Positions 25,827 to 57,865 of a stretch of 64,000 bases of DNA are shown piece by piece. The notes under the pieces are model-generated. The model saw only the letters and a program-made list of their open reading frames with translations, was not told where the DNA came from and made no database searches. Position numbers and translations under genes: made by a program. Numbering within the stretch: the first letter of the stretch is position 1; every line of letters starts with the position of its first letter. Source of the DNA: Podarcis gaigeae (lineage: Eukaryota); the NCBI GenBank assembly GCA_964106915.2, contig OZ066915.1; one strand, given 5' to 3'.

Positions 25827-26006
25827 ATTGTCAAAGCGCTCTACTATCTGAAAGAGAAGCATGGTGTCATCCATAGAGATGTGAAGCCTTCAAATATCTT
25901 GTTGGATGAGAGGGGGCAAATCAAATTGTGTGACTTCGGGATCAGTGGGAGGCTGGTGGACTCGAAAGCCAAAACCCGGAGTGCTGGTTGCGCAGCATAT
26001 ATGGCG
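25827..26006 (+). CDS. MAP2K7: MAP2K7 exon 8 (HRD, DFG, SKAKT activation loop)
   Basis: [60 protein letters not shown]; 180 nt. Confidence 0.99.
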
Positions 26007-45556: not shown

Positions 45557-45641
45557 ATGCATAGAAACTGCCTGCATATCGATCACCTATGGAGACAGTA
45601 CCTCCTCCTGCTGCTTGTCGGCTGGGGGTGCTCTGGGACAG
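45557..45641 (+). CDS. TGFBR3L: TGFBR3L coding exon 1 (signal peptide; exon starts at 45510)
   Basis: caccATG; MHRNCLHIDHLWRQYLLLLLVGWGCSGT; G|gtaaag phase 1 fits the next exon. Confidence 0.8.
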
Positions 45642-46020
45642 GTAAAGTCTAACAGAGTGGCTATTGTAAACATTTAAATGGGCTGCACAATAATTATCCA
45701 CACCAAAGGTGTAAAACGTTTTGCTAAAACAAAACAACAAAACAAAACAAAACAAAAACATTATTGTAGGGGAGCTGTCCAGGATACATTGCTGTATGTA
45801 TCCTGAAGTGTACATGTAAAAAATAAATTAGCAGTCTTAAAATACATTTTTCTTTGCAACCTTGAATGTAGAGCAGGTCTTTCAACTTTGCTAAATAGAC
45901 ATGTGTGCGCTCACACAGAGCCATTTGGACTTGTCAAATTTTCTTCCCTTGCAGCAGAATAGGTAGATGAAGTTGTCAGAGTATAAATGTATTCAATAGG
46001 GTTTTATACTAGGGGCTTGA

Positions 46021-46397
46021 GGGACGTGGGTGGTGCTGTGGTCTAAACCACTGAGCCTCTTGAGTTTGCCGATCGCAAGATTGGCAGTTCAAATTCACAC
46101 AATGGGGTGAGCTCCCATTGCTCTGTTCCGGCTCCTGTCAACCTAGCAGTTTGAAAGCATGCCAGTGCAAGTAGATAAATAGGTACCGGTGTGGCGGGAA
46201 GGTAAACGGCGTTTCCATGTGCTCTGGTTTCTCTCACAGTGTTCCATTGTGCCAGAAACAGTTTAGTCATGCTGGTCACATGACACGGAAAAGCTGTCTG
46301 CGGACAAACGCCAGCTCCCTCAGCCTCAAAGCAGAGATGAGCGCTGCACCCCAAAGTCAAAATCGACTGGATTTAACCATTCATGGGTCCTTTACCT
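46021..46397 (+). mobile_element. Sauria SINE
   Basis: gggacgtgggtggtgctgtggtctaaacc head, cctttacctt tail, flanking tactagggg repeats; homologous to 46898-47246. Confidence 0.9.
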
Positions 46398-46897
46398 TAC
46401 TAGGGGTTTCTCAATTCTGCATGATGCTTCTGATGCCCTTTGTCCTGCTTCTCTTTATTGGATGTACCTTCAGTGAGCAGCTTGGATTTGCAGAGTGTCC
46501 TTCATTCTGTACCTGCTTATTTTTCACAGGATGCAATTTCAGTTCCTTGATAACCAAGTACACACAGCTAAGGGCACTTTTAATCTCCAGCTCGGCACTC
46601 AGTATTTGTTTTTGACATTGATTACCATAGGGCAGGTAGATGCTGCCTGTGGGTTGTTTATAGCACAGAGGCTGTTAAGCTATCTGCTGAATTCATAGCC
46701 AGCCGACCATGGTTGCTTCCTATAAAGAGAAGAGCCCAGGCTTCCAAAGTTGACCAGGAGTCATAGTTTCTGTTCTGAATGGTGAGGGGAAGGCACTCTG
46801 CACTTGCTGTAAGGTACTTCTGCTATTTCTTCACATTCCCAAATTGGGGGGAAAACATCCATGTTGAACACTCCTGCAGCTGTACAGTACTCTCTGT

Positions 46898-47246
46898 GGG
46901 ACGTGGGTGGCGCTGTGGGTTAAACCACAGAGCCTAGGACTTGCCGATCTGAAGGTTGGCAGTTCAAATCCCTGCAATGGGGTGGCTCCCGTTGCTTGGT
47001 TCCTGCTCCTGCCAACCTAGCAGTTCGAAAGCACGTCAAAGTGCAAGTAGATAAATAGGTACTGCTCTGGCGGAAAGGTAAACTGCGTTTCCATGGGCTG
47101 CTCTGGTTCACCAGAAGCGGCTTAGTCATGCTGGTCACATGACCCAGAAGCTGTACGCCGGCTCCCTTGGCCAGTAAAGCGAGATGAGAGCCGCAACCCG
47201 AGTCAGCCACGACTGGACCGAATGGTCAGGGGTCCCTTTACCTTTA
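46898..47246 (+). mobile_element. Sauria SINE
   Basis: gggacgtgggtggcgctgtgggttaaacc...ggtcaggggtccctttaccttta; imperfect TSD ending ctctctgt. Confidence 0.9.
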
Positions 47247-47373
47247 CAGCTCTCTGTTCCTTTCTCATGGTGCCAGAGCATATTCTTTCACATGGAATGT
47301 TAAGGCAGGTTGAGTTGGTAGAATCCTTCCATGAAATGGAATTGAAATGGAATTGTACCATCAGGCTGCAGAT

Positions 47374-47480
47374 GGTGTCCCCCCTAAAGCTGTCTGTGTC
47401 CCCCCCTAAAGGGTGTCCCCCCTAAAGCTGTCTGTGTGTAAAATTCTAGTACACTGAGGAGATTCTAGTACACTGAGGAG
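47374..47480. repeat. Local short tandem duplications
   Basis: gtgtcccccctaaag x3; attctagtacactgaggag x2. Confidence 0.85.
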
Positions 47481-47834
47481 AAAGAATTAGCTCCCTGGGG
47501 CAACTTAATAACTCTGCCCAGAAGCATAGGCAGAAATGAGAGAGCCCAGGCCAGGCAGCTCCTGAGGTCGCCCTGAGAATATTTGGTAGCTTTTGTTCCT
47601 TCCAGTATTTTAAATTGAAAATTGCCTTGGTAGAAAGGCAACAAACCAGCCCAGCCTGCTACCTACTGTGTTAGCTTTCCTATTACAAGGAACTTTTTAC
47701 ATTGTAGTCTCAGAATAGCATATAGTCTGGTCTGCCACCACATTCTCACCCAGTCTTATTGTTGTGTATGTAATGTGTAGCCCCCGTGCAGGGCTAGCAG
47801 CTTCCCTGTAATTATTTAATTCGTAAAATGAATG

Positions 47835-47955
47835 GTCAGTGGTTAGAGCACCTGCTTTGCATGACGTAGGTCCCAGCTTCATTTCCCAGCATCTTCAGGT
47901 AGGACTGAGGTTGTCCCTAGAGAGCTGCAGCCAGTCAGTGCAATAGACAATACTC
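47835..47955 (+). mobile_element. tRNA-derived SINE (Squam-like)
   Basis: tcagtggttagagcacctgctttgcatg..ggtccca...cagccagtcagtg..gacaatact. Confidence 0.6.
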
Positions 47956-48655
47956 TCATCTTCATAATGAAAACAGACTTTAAATAATAATTCTCTTTAA
48001 TAGGGTTGAGTGCCAAACATGGCCACTGAAAAACAAGAGGAGTGCCATCAACATGCCCGGGAGAAACGCGGGGGGGGGGGACTAAAAGGGAGGAACCCCC
48101 CCAAAAAAAACCACTTTCCCACCCAGCAAAGGCTCTACATGCTGAGTATCCTTTGGAAAAGGAATTTAAAGGGAAGGAGGAGACTGAGCCCCTTACAGTT
48201 TATAGTATCTTGGTGGAGGGAAAGGATAGCTGACTGAAAAAGAAACACTTTTTTCCCTTGTACAACTTGTACAATCTAAAAATAAGCCAGTAAGCCATTG
48301 TTAGGAGCAATTCACAGTGACCCTCCCCCCTCAGTGTGGGGACCATGAAATGCACACTAATCCATTTCTGTCCCATCATACCAGTTCCCCCAGAGTTTCT
48401 TGTTTTATTTTTCCCTCCATCATCCTCAGTCATTGGCCAGATATTCCATATTTTTTGTTTCTCAGACACAGAATGAATTATGCAAAAAAGAAAAAAGAAA
48501 AAAAGAAAAAAAGTTAAGCTGGTGTATCATTTTGAGCTCAGGCACCTGAGCACTTTGTGTTTTGGGAGAAAGGGGTTGCCAAATGTACAGAGTTTTGGAA
48601 ACTACTTTTCTGAAACCCCGTTTCTTCCAGCATTGCTCTTCTCCTTCCCCTGCAG

Positions 48656-48828
48656 CCACCTGGCACCATCTTGCTTGCCTCCCCATGTCTGCCTCTACCC
48701 CACATCCCGTCCTCGGCTTCTGGGAATCACTGCGAAAAGGCACCGGATGCACCAGCCGGGGCCGCTCTACCCTGGGGCAAGAAGTCCATGTCATCAGCCT
48801 GAAGAAGGGATTGCCGGCAAATGGCCAG
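48656..48828 (+). CDS. TGFBR3L: TGFBR3L exon, orphan domain part 1
   Basis: CLPMSASTPHPVLGFWESLRKGTGCTSRGRSTLGQEVHVISL matches betaglycan HPV..MES..GCASRG..EVHVLNL; 173 nt, phase 1-0. Confidence 0.92.
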
Positions 48829-49252
48829 GTATGGGAGATCCCCATCCATACCACCTTCCCATGTATGAGGCGGTATGATGGGTCTTGCTACAGCTCCATT
48901 GGATACCCAAACAAGATGGCCGTTCAGCTTGGCACTACAGCTCAAGGTGTCTCAGTCAGTCAAAAAGGCAAAACTCCATTTCAGTCACTTCTTCACAGTT
49001 GTCAGGGCCTCTCTTAAGTCACAGAAGCGTTAGGTTAGCCAAGTTGTGAGAAGCAAAGAGGAACACTCTCGCGCAGGGCCTGCTTAGTGCTGGAGGTGGG
49101 AACATGCCTCACCTGCTGAACATCCAAGGGGTAAGTTGCTAGGCCGTCTTTGGTGGTATATCCTACCTTCTCTGGTTCTTTTCCAATCCCTTCTCCATTT
49201 CGCTCTTTGATCATGCATGGAGAAGGTACCTGTCCCCTTGATCCTCTTTCAG

Positions 49253-49372
49253 GTAACTCTGATAACTCTGGACCCAGATCCCCACGACAGAGGCCCCATC
49301 TTTGTGCTGTATTCCCGGAAGCCTGTGCGTTGGGTGTTGCTGTCTCCCCCTGGAAAAAACTGGACCTTCCAG
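49253..49372 (+). CDS. TGFBR3L: TGFBR3L exon, orphan domain part 2
   Basis: VTLITLDPDPHDRGPIFVLYSRKPVRWVLLSPPGKNWTFQ (cf. betaglycan VTL...FLLNSPxPLVW); 120 nt. Confidence 0.9.
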
Positions 49373-49589
49373 GTGAGATGGGATAGAGGGCCAAAGGGCC
49401 TAGAGAAGATCATGGGGGTCACTGAGGGGGTCGTTGGAGTCCCTGCTCTACGCAAGCATAGAAGATGAGTGGCATCTATGGGAAGGGTGGATGGAAAAGC
49501 TAATTTGCTACCTCCACAGCACTTTTACAAAATACTTTCAGATCTAGCTCTGTTTGTCTTCAGAAGCATCTTGTGTAGTAAGTTCCTAT

Positions 49590-49720
49590 TCTTCCCATTT
49601 TACAGATGGGGGAAATTGAGGCTGAGGGAGGCTTGCCTAAGGCCACCCAGTGAATCTGTGGCTGAGGTGGAACTTGAACCCAGATCTCCCAGATTAAAGT
49701 GCAGAACTGTTCAACTTTAA
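49590..49720 (-). mobile_element. MIR-like CORE-SINE fragment
   Basis: cccattttacagatgggggaaattgaggct...gaacttgaacccagatctcc. Confidence 0.7.
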
Positions 49721-49804
49721 TGCACTCCCCAGTGTGGGGTGCCAGAGAGGGGGGGAGGTTCTCCAGGCTAGTATATTTTACCTTTGCCTTCCTCCTATCT
49801 ACAG

Positions 49805-49988
49805 GTCTCCCCTGGCTCTAATGTTTCAGCCCCGGGGCCAGTGGCTTCTGCTGAGACCAACTTACCAAAGACGCCCAAACGCCTGCTGAAGTGGGCACGG
49901 AGGGAGCATGGAGGGGTCACCTCTCTGGCTGAATACCATGGAGTCAACAGAATCTACACACACCTGGGGGCTGGCATGGGCAACGAGG
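49805..49988 (+). CDS. TGFBR3L: TGFBR3L exon, orphan domain part 3 (3' end at 49988 GT or 49973 GC)
   Basis: VSPGSNV...LLKWARREHGGVTSLAEYHGVNRIYTHLG (cf. LLxWAxKEYGAVTSFTE...NIYIKVG). Confidence 0.9.
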
Positions 49989-50448
49989 GTAGATATCGGC
50001 TCTGAGGAAAGGGTGGCATTATGGCTGTGTGTCCTACAATTCCCCATCCCTGACCACTGGCCACCCTGGCTGGGGCTGATTGGAGTTGCAGTCCAGCAAC
50101 ATATGGAGAGAGACAGGTTCCCCATTTTCGCTACTGCAGTGTGATAAGCAGGAGGAGGGCAGGCAGCTGATCTTTTGGGTCCTGGGCTAATGCAGTAACT
50201 GTGCAGAAGTTGTGCAGGTCTGGGTCTGGTCAGTGCTTGGAAGGGAGACCATCCAGGAAGGAAAGATCTGTGCACTGCAATCACAGAGGGAAGATGGAAT
50301 ATATACACGGCACAGATAAATAAGACTCACCAGTATCAACTGGAGAGCAGTTGCCAAAGAGTTTGCATTGCTTGCAAAAAAAAGAGTAAATCGCAGCAGC
50401 TCTTCTGTGACCATTCAGTCCAGATGCTTCATTCCTTTCCTTCTCCAG

Positions 50449-50608
50449 ATGGGATTGCCCCAGCCGCTTGCAGATTAAGTAGGAATTTCCTGACCCCAGT
50501 GCACTTTGCCTCCAAGTGCCAACTCCAGCCTCTGAGAGTTTGCCTGCATCCTGACCCTCCGCAAGTCCTTGAAGTTCACATCATCCTCTCCAAAGGAGTT
50601 GCACCAAG
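50449..50608 (+). CDS. TGFBR3L: TGFBR3L exon, orphan domain part 4
   Basis: DGIAPAACRLSRNFLTPVHFASKCQLQPLRVCLHPDPPQVLEVHIILSKGVAP (cf. C..NFL...C...EVHII); 160 nt, phase 1-2. Confidence 0.92.
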
Positions 50609-50860
50609 GTGCGTGCCACGGAGGCATCGCCAGAGCTTCAGCATGCGGCTGTTGAACCGGGGGGGGGGGGGAGCAGGGGGTTGGCAAAATGTTCATAACG
50701 AGATGCCGTGTCTTGAACAGGGAGGTTGAAATTGTTCTTAGTGTAGATGGGGAAGGGGGACGGTGAGGAAGAATGAAACCTATGCAAGAAGCTGCCTATG
50801 ATAAGTGACCCTTGTGTTAAAATGGATAAGATATAATAAACAGGAGCATGGAAGCTGGTT

Positions 50861-50993
50861 CATCTAGCCTGGTACTGCTGACACAGACTGGCAGCAGATC
50901 TCCCATGTCTTTCTCAGCTCTGTCTGGAGATGACGGGGATCGAATCTCTGCCCTTCTGCATGCAGAGCAGTTGCCCTGCCACTTAGCTACGGC
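50861..50993 (-). mobile_element. tRNA-derived SINE (same type as 47835)
   Basis: Reverse complement gccgtagctaagtggcagggcaactgctctgcatgcagaagg..gattcgatccccgtcatctccag. Confidence 0.65.
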
Positions 50994-51176
50994 ACTTCCC
51001 CCGAAAGTCAAGGCCAGATGGACACTGAGCCAAAAACGAGTAGCGACAGTGGCTGGTATTAGGCCTTGAATATTGGGCAGGGAACTCTGAGTTGGGGGAC
51101 GGGTGGTGTGGGGCTTCACTGGCTTCCATCATGTGCTTAATCCTGTTGTGGTGGGGGGCAGCCTGCTCTCTTCTAG

Positions 51177-51318
51177 GCCCACCCTGGCTCATTTGACTGT
51201 GGAACTTCATGCTGTGCGAAGGCCCCCCCACTGGGGACTGATCTTGATACTGAAGAGTGAGGGAGCTGCTGAGTGGATGGTTCACACCCACCGCCTCACT
51301 GGCCGGCTGCATGTCCTG
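51177..51318 (+). CDS. TGFBR3L: TGFBR3L exon, orphan domain part 5
   Basis: PTLAHLTVELHAVRRPPHWGLILILKSEGAAEWMVHTHRLTGRLHVL (cf. NLILILK..VNWVI..GxLKVI); 142 nt, phase 2-0. Confidence 0.92.
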
Positions 51319-51458
51319 GTAGGGGCAGGACCTGCTCTGGGTATAGATCTGTAACGCTCTAGGCCAGCTAATATGCTTCTCTCTCTCCCCCTCCCCAAGT
51401 TGGTGGCAGTGGCACACATCTGGAAGGGAGCAGGGCACACATGTGCTCAAAGCCAGAT

Positions 51459-51680
51459 ACAGACGCTTCAGGTTCCAGACGTTTCAGGTTCCAGACTCCG
51501 CTAACCCAGAAATAGTGCTTCAGGTTAAGAACTTTGCTTCAGGATGAGAACAGAAATCATGCTCCAGCGGCACGGCAGCAGGGGGCCCCATTAGCTAAAA
51601 TGGTACCTCAGGTTAAGAACAGTTTCAGGTTAAGAACAGACCTCCGGAACGAATTAAGTTCTTAACCTGAGGTACCACTG
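51459..51680. mobile_element. Tigger/mariner-like MITE lacking its left end
   Basis: Internal cttcaggtt repeats; right TIR cctgaggtaccactg followed by TA. Confidence 0.7.
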
Positions 51681-52176
51681 TATAGCCAAGTGTGTCATCA
51701 ACATCAGTACAAAACTGGGTGGGATTTATTCCTTAATTAACCTGAGGTACCACTGTAGATGCATTATGCAGAATTGCAACCTTTCCTAGTGGAAGCAGTT
51801 TGGTAATTTTATATGCTTGGCTTCATGCTATTATAAGGGATATATTATGGAGGGTTCATTCTGCTAACTCCTGCCTTCACAGGTCCACTAGTGAGCTTTA
51901 CCAACCCTCTTCCATAAGCTTCCCCTGCATTCTCCCTATAACTCTAGGTTTGCCTCCTCCTCCTCCAGCCTTATTTATTTATTTATTTTTGCTAAAGTGA
52001 GCCAAGGAGTCTTACTTCCTGGCTCCAACTCTCCACCCCACTAGGCTACTCCCTCTTGGGAGTCTGTCTCCATGCTGCCATTTGATTCCCCTGGACCGTC
52101 TCTTGTTTATGGTGTGCTGCTGCTGCTCTCCATGTCTGGGCCTTGTATTGTAACTCAGGCTGGGATTCCTTTCTAG

Positions 52177-52363
52177 GCTTCGCACAAAGTCACAGTCAGC
52201 AGCACAGAAATGGATCTGCCTCTGACTGTGACCCAGCGGACGTCCCCTCGGCTGATGACCCTCGACCCTTTGCAGTTTGCAACGGAGCAGAATCTGCCTG
52301 CCTTTACATCCTACGTTGAGGCTGAGCGGGTGAACAGGTTTCTCCTTTTTGTTGGGATGAATG
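52177..52363 (+). CDS. TGFBR3L: TGFBR3L exon, orphan domain part 6
   Basis: ASHKVTVSS...LQFATEQNLPAFTSYVEAERVNRFLLFVGMN (cf. TSYTxAPVANRFHL); 187 nt, phase 0-1. Confidence 0.92.
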
Positions 52364-52583
52364 GTAGGTTTGGAGGGATTCAATGGACATGAATGGGAAA
52401 AGTGCCCACCAGAGAGCTTAGAGGCAAACCTCTAGTGACCGCTGCAGTAGATTCCTGGCATTTATATTCCAGTTCCTCCTGCACCATTTTACCCTAGAGT
52501 ATACAACCTCAGTTTTATTTTAGGAATGCACCAAATCAAAACATTTTCAGCATGAAAAGTATGCTTCCAAGGGGGCTGAAATG

Positions 52584-52585
<2 letters not shown>

Positions 52586-52618
<33 letters not shown>
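52586..52618. repeat. (AC)n microsatellite
   Basis: About 16 AC units. Confidence 0.95.
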
Positions 52619-52621
<3 letters not shown>

Positions 52622-53222
52622 CCAAAGCATATATTTTGGTGCTTGTTAACAGATGTTTTGCTGCTTCAGTGCCATTTTCCCAAACCCTTTTGAGAGCTTA
52701 TTTCCTAGTCGTTATGTGATCCCAGCCAATCAGGATTCACGTAGGGATGATAAATGGCGTCAAATAGGCAATCAGCTGTGGCTACAATGGTAAAATCAAG
52801 AAGGGCAAATGAAACTGCATTGCATTCTGAATCCTGAGCTCATGGAAGAGAAAAGGAAGGCGTGCCATATTATGTCAGAATGTGCAGACCTTTCACTTAG
52901 GTAACAGAAGGAATAGATACAGGGTTGCCAACATTCTTGGGCCCATGGGTAAGTCTGCAACAGAGATATTGTTGTGAGTACCCTCCCCTCCTCTCCTGCA
53001 AACTATTCTATGTGCTCCAATAGAATGCTTCTTCTGAGCCTAATTATAGTGCTGGGAGGGGAGGCTAGCTTGTAGACTGTAGAGAAGGCCTCTGTGAGCT
53101 GGGCACATGTGTTCTTTGGGACCACACTGGTGATGCTTGGAATAGATCATATTTTGATTAACAGCAGCAGTGTATAAGGCATATGATTGCATCACACCCA
53201 CACACCTGTATTTCCTTTGTAG

Positions 53223-53470
53223 GGGCCACACCTCCTCTAGAAGAGCCAACACTCTTTTGGCCCATATTTCTGCATCCTCCCAGTTTCACAGCCTCTCAAC
53301 AGGACTTTGCAGAAGCCAACACAGCTGGCTGGGAGGTGACAAGGCAAGACTTTGGGGGAGAGGATGGTTCCGTTACCTACCCACCGTCTACAGCCAAAAC
53401 AGAGGGGACAGAATCTATCTTGTGTCTTGGGGACCATAAGCCTATTCTTGAAAACCAGGACACTCAGAGA
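53223..53470 (+). CDS. TGFBR3L: TGFBR3L exon, linker plus first ZP-N strand remnant
   Basis: gtag|GG GCC ACA...CAG AGA|gtgagt; open in the required phase 1-0; ends SILCLGDHKPILENQDTQR; 248 nt. Confidence 0.8.
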
Positions 53471-53612
53471 GTGAGTAGCCAAGGATGACATCTCCAGATG
53501 GACAGAGGGAATCTACTTCCTACAGTGCCATTTCATGTGGATGTGGGATGGGTGGGTATTCTCTTGCCGTTCTACATCAATACCGCTCCACAGACCTGTT
53601 TTTCTCCTGCAG

Positions 53613-53792
53613 GTCTCCTGTGTTTCACCTTCTCCAACCCAGATATCTCCCTCAGAAGCCGCCACGGCCTTCCAGGATCCCCACCTTCACCTTGGCAATG
53701 CCCTCATTAACCTAGAGCTCTACAACACAGAGGCTTTTGCCAAGCAACTTGGACCTTTTGTCGTCTCAGCCAACAGCCCTGTCTTTGTGGAG
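53613..53792 (+). CDS. TGFBR3L: TGFBR3L exon, start of ZP-C
   Basis: VSCV...GNALINLELYNTEAFAKQLGPFVVSANSPVFVE (cf. GNxTFNMELYNTDLF...VYVE); 180 nt. Confidence 0.93.
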
Positions 53793-54505
53793 GTAAAGCG
53801 GACGATGAATATGCAAGAGCTGGCATTGGACGCAGCAGTTACACACCAGAATCTTGTCCCTAAGTGATTCCTCCTCTGTCCAGAGATCTGGTGGTTTGCA
53901 GCACTCCCTGTCTCTCTCAGAGCCTCAAACAGGGCAGTTGACCTGCTTGTTGCTTTGTGGGGGGTGATAAACTTACACTGTAGCTCTCAAAGGGACGAAG
54001 TAACAGGGGTGATTTGCCATCACGTTTTACCAGCTTAGAAGGGCAACGTGCATCCCAGGGAAGGTCATGATTTTGTAAGCAAAACAGCAAGGAATAGACT
54101 TAGCAGATTTCATACTGCGGCTCAATTCAAGGTCCAACTTTATGGTTGGTTGGCAATGAAAAAATAGGTATAAAAAGACAATTCCTGGATGCCAAGAGCC
54201 AAGTTTGGGGCAAGTATTCTTTGGTGAGAGAACCCCAGCAGAAATTTAAAACAACAAACATCTAGCAATGTAAAGCATGGAAATATAGGTTGTTATTCTT
54301 AGAATATGACTTTCTAAGTTCCTTCCAAAATTCCCCTCTTCTCCTGGCATAGAAAATACCATGTGTGTGGTAAGTTCAAAATGGTTTACTTACAGACTCT
54401 CCAATGATCAGATTCATGTGCTTTTCAGTGCAGCATTCAGAAAACGTTGGCAGCAAAACGGGCCCTGGTGTTTGCAGACTAGATGGTGTTTCCTTTTTCC
54501 TCCAG

Positions 54506-54826
54506 GCTTCCTTGGCAACCTATGACTCGTCTCTCAGCTTCACCATCCAGAAGTGCTTCATCTCTAGCTCCTCAGATGCTTCAGAGGCCTCAGTGTATCT
54601 GCTGGTCCAGCATGGCTGTCCTGTGGCCGCCGCCCAAGTCAGGCTGTGGAAACCCGAGCTGCCAGGCCAGGCCCAGGCATTGCCTCTGGGGTACCAGGAA
54701 CGCCAGCGACTGAGCTTTGTGTTGAGGCCACAGTCCAATGCCTCCATCCACTTCTTGCACTGCCGTCTGACTCTCTGCAGCAGGGGGTCTCAGGACCCCG
54801 CCAGACCCAAGGGCGCAATCCCCAAG
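54506..54826 (+). CDS. TGFBR3L: TGFBR3L exon, ZP-C core
   Basis: LSFTIQKCFIS...GCP...RLSFVLRPQSNASIHFLHCRLTLCSR...IPK; 321 nt; donor AAG|gtctct. Confidence 0.93.
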
Positions 54827-54980
54827 GTCTCTGGCTCCCTGGGCTGTAGAAAGAGCCTCCCAGTTAGCTGTAGAAATGAGCTGGCTGGGCTTATGGAGAA
54901 GCAGGTGGGATGTAAGTGGGCCGAGGTCTACCTCCCACTGTTGGGATGAGGCACTCTTCTGAAGCAGGTTTTTGTTTCAG

Positions 54981-55113
54981 TGTCAGTCTGAGAACGAGGC
55001 CTGCAGGGGAGAAGAGGAGGCGGTCCCAAGCCGCTTCCAGCGCACCATCACAAAGCCTATGCTAGTGACTGTGGAGACTCCGCTCCGAGCTGCCTCTCCT
55101 GGCCCGAAACCAG
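54981..55113 (+). CDS. TGFBR3L: TGFBR3L exon, ZP-C end and external hydrophobic patch
   Basis: CQSENEAC...RTITKPMLVTV (cf. CVxPDxAC...KTFTKPLAV); 133 nt, phase 0-1. Confidence 0.92.
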
Positions 55114-55629
55114 GTACTTTCCTGTGGGTTCTAGATAGCAGCCAGGAGAGAGCAGTTGGCTTGAAGGCTTTGCAGTTCAGCACCCTGGCTGCATGCTGGA
55201 GAGAACTGCCCTGCAGAGTGAGTGAGGAACTGAAAGAAACTGATGGGGGAGTCCTGCTTGCTGGGGAGATGGAGGTGTCTCCTTATGCATCTCTCCAGAG
55301 CAGAGGTGGTGGACCTGTAGCCCTCTAGATATTCTTGGACTCCAGCTCCCATCACCTCAAGCCACCATGGCCAATGGCAAGGGATGATGGGGCTTGTAGT
55401 TCACCAGCATCTCCTACCCAGGAGATTGATGCCTTGGATCTCACCATGCTACAGGCCCAGACTTTGCCAATGGCATCTTGCATGTTCATCCTGAGTGAAG
55501 CAAAGTAGCAATGATGAGCAGAGTTATGCACTCATTTCTTTTCTCCCCCTTGCCACCCGGAGGCTATTTTCTTCAGACACGCCCTCAGATTATCTGTTCC
55601 TTCCTTGACTTTGGTGTCTTTTTCTGCAG

Positions 55630-55704
55630 CTAAGGTCCCAGACAAACAACAAGGAAAAGCACCAAAGGATTCAGCCCACAAGCGGAAGACTCAGGTAGTC
55701 CGAA
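55630..55704 (+). CDS. TGFBR3L: TGFBR3L basic stalk exon
   Basis: Long pyrimidine tract, gcag|CT AAG...CGA A|gtaagt; 75 nt, phase 1-1; KVPDKQQGKAPKDSAHKRKTQVVR. Confidence 0.7.
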
Positions 55705-55988
55705 GTAAGTAAACATCCCCATGCTCTCTTGCTGGCCTTGTTTCCCAGGGATTTGGGGACTGAAATTGGTTTTAGACTGGAATTCTACTCCTGGCTCTGG
55801 GGGGGGGGGGAGTGGAGTTGAGGATTCCTGCTGCTGTGGGCTGGAGCAAGAACTCTGATCCTCAGACTTTTTCATTCTCTATTACCCCATTTTGGGCCCT
55901 GGCCCATCTCCCCTTCCTGGACAGAGAGTGAGAACGAATTTTTGTGCTCTTTCTCCACACATCCTCCCCATATCCCGCTTCTTTGTAG

Positions 55989-56099
55989 CTGCAGCTGCGC
56001 CAGGCCAGACGGTCCCCGCAGTAATTGGGATAGCTATTGCAGCCTTCCTCATCGGCATCTGCCTCACTATTGGGCTCTGGTTCATTTACACCTATACAG
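55989..56099 (+). CDS. TGFBR3L: TGFBR3L transmembrane exon
   Basis: VPAVIGIAIAAFLIGICLTIGLWFIYTYT (cf. [26 protein letters not shown]); 111 nt. Confidence 0.95.
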
Positions 56100-56945
56100 G
56101 TAGGTATGGAGAGGGTCCCCTCAGTGCTGTAGGTACCATCTATTTTACTTGAATGATTGATTTTTGGCAAAGCCTGGGGGAGCACACCTTAGCATTTCTG
56201 TAAAGGTAGACTGGGCCACATGTCCGAGATGGGAAAACTCTAAATTATAGATCATGAAACCTTTCCTCAACCTATTGCCTTCCAGCTGTTTTGGATTTTA
56301 GCTCTCATCACTAGCTAGCCATGCTTGCTGGGCCTGGACCTTGAGTTGTTCTCTCAAGCAGCTGGAGGGCACCAGGTTGGGGCTGATTGGCTTCTGCCAA
56401 CTGTCTGCCTCCATCTCTTCCGTCAGAGCCAGAATATGCATTATGCAGTCACATGTACCAAGGTTGAGTTACAGTAGGCCATGGATCTTGGGGTGGAAGC
56501 TGGCAGCCAAATGATCCCCATTGCTGTTGGCTTCTAGGAAGGATCAAAGAATGGGAAACATGACCTTTAGGCGATCGAAGATGCAGCAGCTGAAATACAT
56601 ATTGGAATCAATGGGATTATGTGTCTAGGAAATTCACATCATTATTCATTTTGGTCTGCTTTTGCACAGTTGTACTTGTCCACCCATCCACCATGGAAAA
56701 AAGAAATAGAAACAGAACAAATAGGATGATAAAAAGGCCAGACAGCCAAAGGAGGAAAGTAAAGGTCAGAGGGGAGGGAGAGGGATTTATGTGCACATCC
56801 ATATTATTGATGCCAGTCTGCTTTTTATTTCTGGTTATTTTTTATTATTAGACAGTGCACATGCATTTTCACACCTTTCTCTGAAATGAGACGGTCTGAA
56901 CAAAGCTTTAATTACTAAATTTTAATGCCAGCCTTGAACTTGTAG

Positions 56946-56990
56946 GTGGGTCGGCTTCCGGGAGGAGGAGCCAGCCTGCAGCTGAGACCG
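56946..56990 (+). CDS. TGFBR3L: TGFBR3L cytoplasmic exon 1
   Basis: gtag|GT GGG TCG...GAG ACC G|gtaagg; GGSASGRRSQPAAET; 45 nt, phase 1-1. Confidence 0.75.
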
Positions 56991-57749
56991 GTAAGGTGAC
57001 ACATTGGCTTTTGAGAAATCCTTCATTTGAGCAGAGGCTTTGATTCTGCACTCATTTCCATCTCTGGCTGTGAATGGAATCGGTGGTGCGCACTTATAAT
57101 AACTTTTAATTATTTTTCAATGTTTAATTGTTTCAAACTGGTTCTTTAGTTGATAATTTCAACATTATAAGCACCTTAGAGGTTTGACTACAACTAAGCA
57201 GTATACAAAATTTGTTAAATAATAATGAATACATATTGCATGGGTGTCCAGTTCAGCAACCGCAGGCACATATGCACCTTGAGACCTTCCTGGTGCCTGC
57301 AAGTCCCCTTCCCTCTGCTGAAATAAGTCACCTATTGTAGCTAATATAAGGCAGGGAGAGTTCTCTCCCAGCTATACCTAGAGATGCTGGTGAACTGAAC
57401 CTTCTGCATACACCTGGATTCGTTTGAAGCATCCATAATGCAAAGGCAGAGCCAGGAATTCAAGAAAGCTGTCCTTACTACAGCAGGTTGCTGTATGCAA
57501 GAGAGCCAGTTCATTGCCTCCAGGATTAGCCAGTTTTAAATATACCCAAGCAGTTTTGCTTCATCTCAATACTTAAAAGTGGAACATTATAAATATGCTA
57601 AGACTTGGAGAAACTAACATATGCAAATAGGAAGAGGGTGCATTTGTTTACCTCTGGAAGGGGGTTAGTGTGGTGGTGAGATGGATGGTTGCAGTGCAAT
57701 TGGGGGCGGGTGGGGGGCACTGCTGCATTTTCTTCCTTCCTCCTGCTAG

Positions 57750-57865
57750 ACCCTGTAGGACCATCTGCTCCAAAGCGTGAAGACACTTTGTCAGCTCCAG
57801 CTGCAGCTGGCCCTGCACGCCGCACGTGGTGCTCTACCCTAAGAAGCCTCTACCGAAGAAGGTAA
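57750..57865 (+). CDS. TGFBR3L: TGFBR3L cytoplasmic exon 2 (stop TAA at 57863, or donor after 57861)
   Basis: Pyrimidine tract, ctag|; DPVGPSAPKREDTLSAPAAAGPARRTWCSTLRSLYRRR*. Confidence 0.65.

Follow-up and report, generated by a model that had tools for sequence, protein, structure and literature searches.

A squamate TGFBR3L gene without the two ZP-N exons, and its likely role as an inhibin co-receptor

The 64,000-nucleotide window analysed here, from the lizard Podarcis gaigeae, carries a compact plus-strand gene (45557-57865) that is the TGFBR3L of a lacertid, next to MAP2K7. In its product a signal peptide precedes a full orphan domain, which a linker connects to a ZP-C domain; a stalk, a transmembrane helix and a tail follow (Table 1). 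The nearest database protein is a Podarcis muralis TGFBR3-like sequence (93% over the ZP-C exon), and a quick tree of the region from ZP-C to the transmembrane segment (50 rows, computed without bootstrap) unites the window gene with mammal, bird, amphibian, turtle, lungfish and fish TGFBR3L in one clade (SH-aLRT 99), with the TGFBR3 branch separate (support 95). Sixteen of 66 rows were omitted from this tree, four of them, including Phrynocephalus, for want of a usable ZP-C or transmembrane segment and the rest as near-duplicates. Bird TGFBR3L clusters with mammals in it, for which long branches and composition are probably responsible. True TGFBR3 is a separate gene on another contig of the same genome (G000:C15). 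The best PDB matches of the upstream kinase exon are to MAP2K7 (E 2e-35); database labels imply the same adjacency in turtles, and human TGFBR3L presumably adjoins MAP2K7 as well. Several turtle TGFBR3L proteins (P0028, P0036, P0041) carry the label of MAP2K7 isoforms in databases, an error that comes from annotating the two genes as one.

Table 1. Features of the TGFBR3L locus, in window coordinates
Feature	Position	Strand	Basis or remark
MAP2K7 kinase exon, upstream neighbour	25827..26006 (ends approximate)	+	PDB matches
First coding exon, signal peptide, likely start	45557..45641	+	agrees with orthologue N-termini
Orphan domain, six exons, complete	48656..52363	+	open frame, canonical splice sites
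Orphan exons 1-3	48656-48828, 49253-49372, 49805-49988	+	
Orphan exons 4-6	50449-50608, 51177-51318 (alternative acceptor 51162), 52177-52363	+	
Linker exon; 3′ end apparently the decayed first strands of ZP-N, with Cys1 (codon 53423-53425)	53223..53470	+	
142-bp phase-0 intron at the site of the two lost ZP-N exons	53471..53612	+	no remnant detected
Exon with Cys4 (codon 53619-53621) and ZP-C start	53613..53792	+	
Main ZP-C exon	54506..54826	+	Pfam PF00100, E 2e-8; joint in 3/4 runs
ZP-C end exon	54981..55113	+	
Stalk exon	55630..55704	+	coincides with a loose end of run X1
Transmembrane exon	55989..56099	+	
Cytoplasmic tail exons	56946-56990, 57750-57865	+	inferred from orthologue P0001

Two features of the transcribed region deserve mention on their own account. 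Contigs of runs X1 and X14 read into the intron that follows the main ZP-C exon (54827-55006), which has a weak donor, suggesting intron retention, and a repeat element in the preceding intron (54150-54450) attracts a pile-up of many unrelated contigs.

The critical part of the gene is the joint between the linker exon (phase 1 to 0, ending at gtgagt) and the exon after it (phase 0 to 0), which are separated by a GT..AG intron of only 142 bp. The joint 53470-53613 is present in contigs of 4/4 runs (four studies, three organisms); these come from relatives of the window's organism and their status as RNA is a guess, though the joints are GT..AG. At the equivalent place in TGFBR3 of the same genome the flanking exons lie 4651 bp apart and enclose two extra exons of 150 and 141 nt, phase 0 at all boundaries, encoding 97 aa with two cysteines (Cys2 and Cys3) and both acidic Ser-Gly sites. 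Since ZP-N disulfides join C1 to C4 and C2 to C3 (PMC5464963), the missing block holds one complete pair, and the proposal made from the sequence alone, of a clean phase-0 loss of a ZP-N core carrying Cys2 and Cys3, is borne out by both the joint and the paralogue. A profile scan for ZP-N and ZP-C was suggested in the same reading. HMMs of the two extra exons score 63 and 21 bits in TGFBR3, whereas a six-frame translation of the window gives no match of that order, the best hits (E 0.019 and 0.86) each lying far from the gene; the ZP-C exon matches its Pfam family. Neither translation nor HMM revealed exon remnants in the 142-bp intron, which is too small to hold the ZP-N exons because the turtle orthologue needs 252 nt for them. 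Two further negatives are given no weight, namely a short-peptide search of the genome, which found no match, and the absence of ZP-N in Pfam, which had no turtle control and whose precomputed tag misses some exon-bearing turtles.

The block is missing from 27/27 squamate sequences (the window and 26 database proteins), which cover geckos, a skink, a cordylid, lacertids, an amphisbaenian, anguimorphs, iguanians and snakes; a further Phrynosoma match likewise lacks it, as does the tuatara in one partial database model. It is retained in turtles, lungfish, fish and salamanders, and an HMM of the first ZP-N strands scores 0 in squamates and 28-34 in turtles. Of the 19 turtle entries, 16 contain the core exon; the other three are isoform models, two of which (P0032 and P0039) omit the pair of exons at the junction that lizards have and one only the first. 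In terms of the dating that the sequence-only reading had proposed, this distribution places the loss no later than the origin of squamates and perhaps, on the single tuatara model, as early as that of lepidosaurs. It also bears on the explanation that an assembly collapse or a faulty gene model conceals the ZP-N exons, which we consider scarcely credible. The window contains no N, the identical joint occurs in contigs of three other organisms, none of the 26 proteins from other squamate assemblies carries the block, and when the whole genome was searched with the protein of a turtle, none of the seven matches fell on ZP-N exons near the gene.

Along with the ZP-N core, the glycosaminoglycan (GAG) attachment sites had been described as absent, and the mature ectodomain indeed contains no Ser-Gly dipeptide, making it very likely that the window TGFBR3L is not a proteoglycan. 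Betaglycan carries two GAG-bearing Ser-Gly sites, Ser535 and Ser546 (PMC2119924). Their removal by the exon deletion itself is contradicted by the orthologues: an acidic Ser-Gly (at least three acidic neighbours) between Cys3 and Cys4 occurs in 0/28 TGFBR3L proteins that keep ZP-N versus 5/7 TGFBR3, six fish proteins being assigned by similarity and not by tree, and a Ser-Gly of any kind occurs there in 13 of the 28. This pattern indicates that the GAG sites were lost long before the ZP-N exons, and the gene is properly compared with the TGFBR3L of turtles and fish instead of with betaglycan.

The cysteines encoded at 53423 and 53619 are, as described from the sequence, the homologues of ZP-N Cys1 and Cys4, and splicing places them 17 residues from each other (residues 418 and 436). 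As a matched pair they fare less well, since the homology holds and the conservation does not: both are present in only 14/27 squamates, Cys1 alone in 11/27 and neither in two, both Anolis, and Cys4 without Cys1 is never seen. Cys1, which occupies one of the best-conserved linker columns, is kept in 25/27, including 7/7 snakes, all without Cys4; Cys4 is kept in 14/27, or 14/17 of those having the segment. Squamate pairs are 17-18 residues apart, and the tuatara model has both cysteines 12 residues apart. The persistence of Cys1 in snakes without Cys4 appears to conflict with the view that it is purely a relic; the joint loss in Anolis and the zero count of Cys4-only cases would fit a genuine pair.

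Structure prediction does not favor a folded remnant. AlphaFold2 assigns residues 406-508 of the P. muralis orthologue, which include the two cysteines (467 and 485), a pLDDT below 50 and no strands, low confidence of this kind not being proof of disorder, and in a turtle control ZP-N folds at pLDDT 76-92. Over the 15 places that follow Cys1, the share of large hydrophobic residues is 0.16 in 21 squamates versus 0.40 in ZP-N keepers (the 26 of 35 that the pattern matched). With two cysteines instead of four and no predicted beta-sandwich, the segment lacks the features of a ZP-N domain, and the suggestion of a mini ZP-N finds no support. Nor does the orphan domain seem to be drawn close to ZP-C, as had been supposed: about 114 residues separate them in the window protein (111-116 where lizards have the full exon and 99-104 where its start is shorter, against 174 in turtles), and the predicted-disordered chain is longer in the lizard orthologue (103 residues) than in turtle (52). 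A disulfide loop may well form in the window lizard, but these models leave a mini-domain joining the two domains unsupported.

We therefore regard it as unlikely that Cys1 and Cys4 staple a small structured remnant that pulls the orphan domain towards ZP-C. The distribution of the pair in squamates and the tuatara model, its joint loss in Anolis, and the fact that the exon start containing Cys4 is the spliced form in 4/4 runs speak for such a staple, and in three of the 11 species with Cys1 alone (Varanus, Elgaria and Gekko kuhli) the absence of Cys4 may reflect the model's choice of a downstream acceptor. Against it stand those 11 cases as a whole, the lack of predicted structure and the vanished strand pattern; furthermore, closing the loop would take up about 17 of 114 linker residues, and the lacertid ectodomain has an odd number of cysteines (13, the extra one in the orphan domain), so that alternative partners exist. 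Lacertids are also without a ZP-C cysteine pair found in most squamates (residues 211, 482 and 502 of the window protein are concerned).

A different fate for Cys1, re-use as a disulfide link between two receptor chains, at least in species or splice forms without Cys4, seems to us about as improbable as the staple. It would account for the retention of Cys1 in nearly all squamates, Cys4-less snakes included, and has a precedent in the inter-chain disulfide of endoglin Cys516 (PMC5464963). An in-frame CAG at 53640-53642 offers an acceptor (53643) 30 nt downstream, with a good pyrimidine tract, whose use would drop Cys4 and free Cys1 in the window lizard, but it is used in none of the joints listed for the 4 runs, a list that excludes 13 weaker joints. 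Cys1 is, moreover, lost in both Anolis, and an extra orphan-domain cysteine, gained at the equivalent of position 280 by five colubroid snakes, could pair instead. Gene models of snakes, Varanus, Elgaria and Gekko kuhli begin near the position of acceptor 53643.

The orphan domain has an open frame and, in the P. muralis orthologue, a fold predicted at high confidence that matches betaglycan orphan structures. Its modal identity across squamates (0.82) equals that of ZP-C (0.81), with the linker at 0.66, which suggests that it is under selection. In zebrafish betaglycan, L210, F250 and D253 are needed for binding TGF-beta (PMC11865472); by alignment only, their equivalents differ in the window protein, and the domain has probably given up the betaglycan mode of TGF-beta binding. 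That change, together with the loss of the orphan domain in amphibians, birds and mammals, could be taken to mean that the gene is decaying to the mammalian ZP-C-only form and that the orphan domain is functionless. We think this very doubtful, given an identity as high as that of ZP-C, the open frame and the confident fold. The tandem acceptors 51162 and 51177, 15 nt apart, alter by five residues the length of the loop that aligns with the TGF-beta binding loop of betaglycan, and both loop lengths are found among squamate models.

ZP-C is homologous to that of betaglycan by Pfam, predicted structure and structure match, and is followed by a transmembrane helix. The TGFBR3L of mammals binds inhibin B but does not bind TGF-beta2 (PMC8673766). 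When the P. muralis ZP-C was modelled together with the presumed inhibin alpha and the betaB of the window genome, the predicted complex scored 0.69 against 0.01 for the best of three controls, with a partner pLDDT of at least 72 and at least 64% of contacts common to the runs; ZP-C is placed on the inhibin alpha fingers and on betaB residues 54-68. The mark was attained by 51/78 solved and 2/108 mismatched pairs (eukaryotes, 39/65 and 2/126), and, as a like complex has been solved (betaglycan ZP-C with TGF-beta2, 8DC0), a pass may mean likeness only; such a prediction can neither show binding or selectivity nor choose among family members. Locus L040 is taken by us to be inhibin alpha on a sequence motif, its PDB matches being at family level only. 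The presumed mature chain (L040:1498-1824) is short, at 109 aa, with most of the heel helix region missing. The lizard ZP-C likely captures inhibin and acts as an inhibin co-receptor. Expression confined to pituitary gonadotropes is among the features by which TGFBR3L is recognised. In Pogona embryos the gene is reported to be regulated (PMC8049264).

The window gene is one of several reduced forms. In a survey of named database entries, P0033, P0056, P0063, P0073, P0207, P0133, P0105, P0156 and P0229-P0232 among them (gene models scored with region HMMs, with no crocodilian or monotreme orthologue among the matches listed, which is not evidence of absence), gar, bowfin, teleosts, lungfish and turtles have the full architecture. 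Two caecilians and two salamanders have ZP-N plus ZP-C without the orphan domain, frogs, marsupials, eutherians and five birds have ZP-C alone, and lizards and snakes have orphan plus ZP-C. Mapped on the accepted species tree, ZP-N was apparently lost some four times (lizards and snakes, frogs, mammals, birds) with ZP-C always spared, and the orphan domain about three times. This repeated pruning of TGFBR3L in vertebrates, as read from the gene models, is the larger result.

Among known systems, mammalian TGFBR3L belongs to the same clade and shares ZP-C, the transmembrane helix, a short tail and the absence of ZP-N, as well as inhibin B binding (PMC8673766), which is predicted for the window type. 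In contrast to it, the window protein has a full orphan domain and the long linker, about 750 aa in all versus about 300; the single extracellular ZP domain that characterizes the mammalian protein does not describe an orthologue of this architecture. Betaglycan (TGFBR3) resembles it in exon phases and order and in the orphan and ZP-C folds, and differs in being a separate gene with a ZP-N core, GAG sites and a TGF-beta loop that is not conserved in the window orphan domain. The TGFBR3L proteins of turtles, lungfish and fish are direct orthologues, which have the orphan domain and ZP-C, lack an acidic Ser-Gly and keep a folded four-Cys ZP-N, skipped in some turtle isoform models. Survival of ZP-C after loss of ZP-N, more than once, is also known from the standalone ZP-C of nematodes, an unrelated lineage, which is called the first natural case in PMC7456536, the excerpted text of which does not treat TGFBR3L.

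We propose, as the probable account, that lizard TGFBR3L has lost its two phase-0 ZP-N exons in all squamates examined and consists of an orphan domain, a predicted-disordered linker and a ZP-C that serves as a likely inhibin co-receptor. The exons would first have been skipped and then deleted, an order suggested by the turtle isoform models that skip them, and the frame would have stayed intact because both flanking introns are phase 0. In betaglycan, ZP-N binds no ligand, is not fixed to ZP-C and is unneeded for TGF-beta potentiation (PMC11865472); on the first two of these grounds it would have been dispensable in TGFBR3L too. The leftover ZP-N strands would have decayed into the linker, where the two cysteines, if both are kept, may close a 17-residue loop, a relic and not a domain. 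ZP-C is predicted to hold inhibin by the fingers of its alpha chain and the heel helix of betaB and would thereby help inhibin B to block activin type II receptors, as with mammalian TGFBR3L. A bolder version, in our view unlikely, is a natural two-armed, ZP-N-free co-receptor in which ZP-C binds inhibin, the orphan domain binds another TGF-beta-family ligand through a rewired, alternatively spliced loop, and Cys1 dimerises the chains in the manner of endoglin, the whole being the outcome of one among four separate reductions of an ancient betaglycan paralogue, with ZP-C spared each time.

Short squamate TGFBR3L proteins are already in public annotation. In a search of openly accessible papers we found none on the domain architecture of non-mammalian TGFBR3L; PMC13187141, in its excerpted text, deals with other receptors. 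Loss of ZP-N is not in itself very surprising, because betaglycan was known to bind its ligands without help from this domain, and its dispensability is here confirmed in nature. TGFBR3L, described from mammals as a small co-receptor for inhibin B, emerges as an old full-length betaglycan paralogue trimmed variously by lineage, a natural deletion series for dating inhibin B specificity and for probing the role of the orphan domain outside betaglycan.
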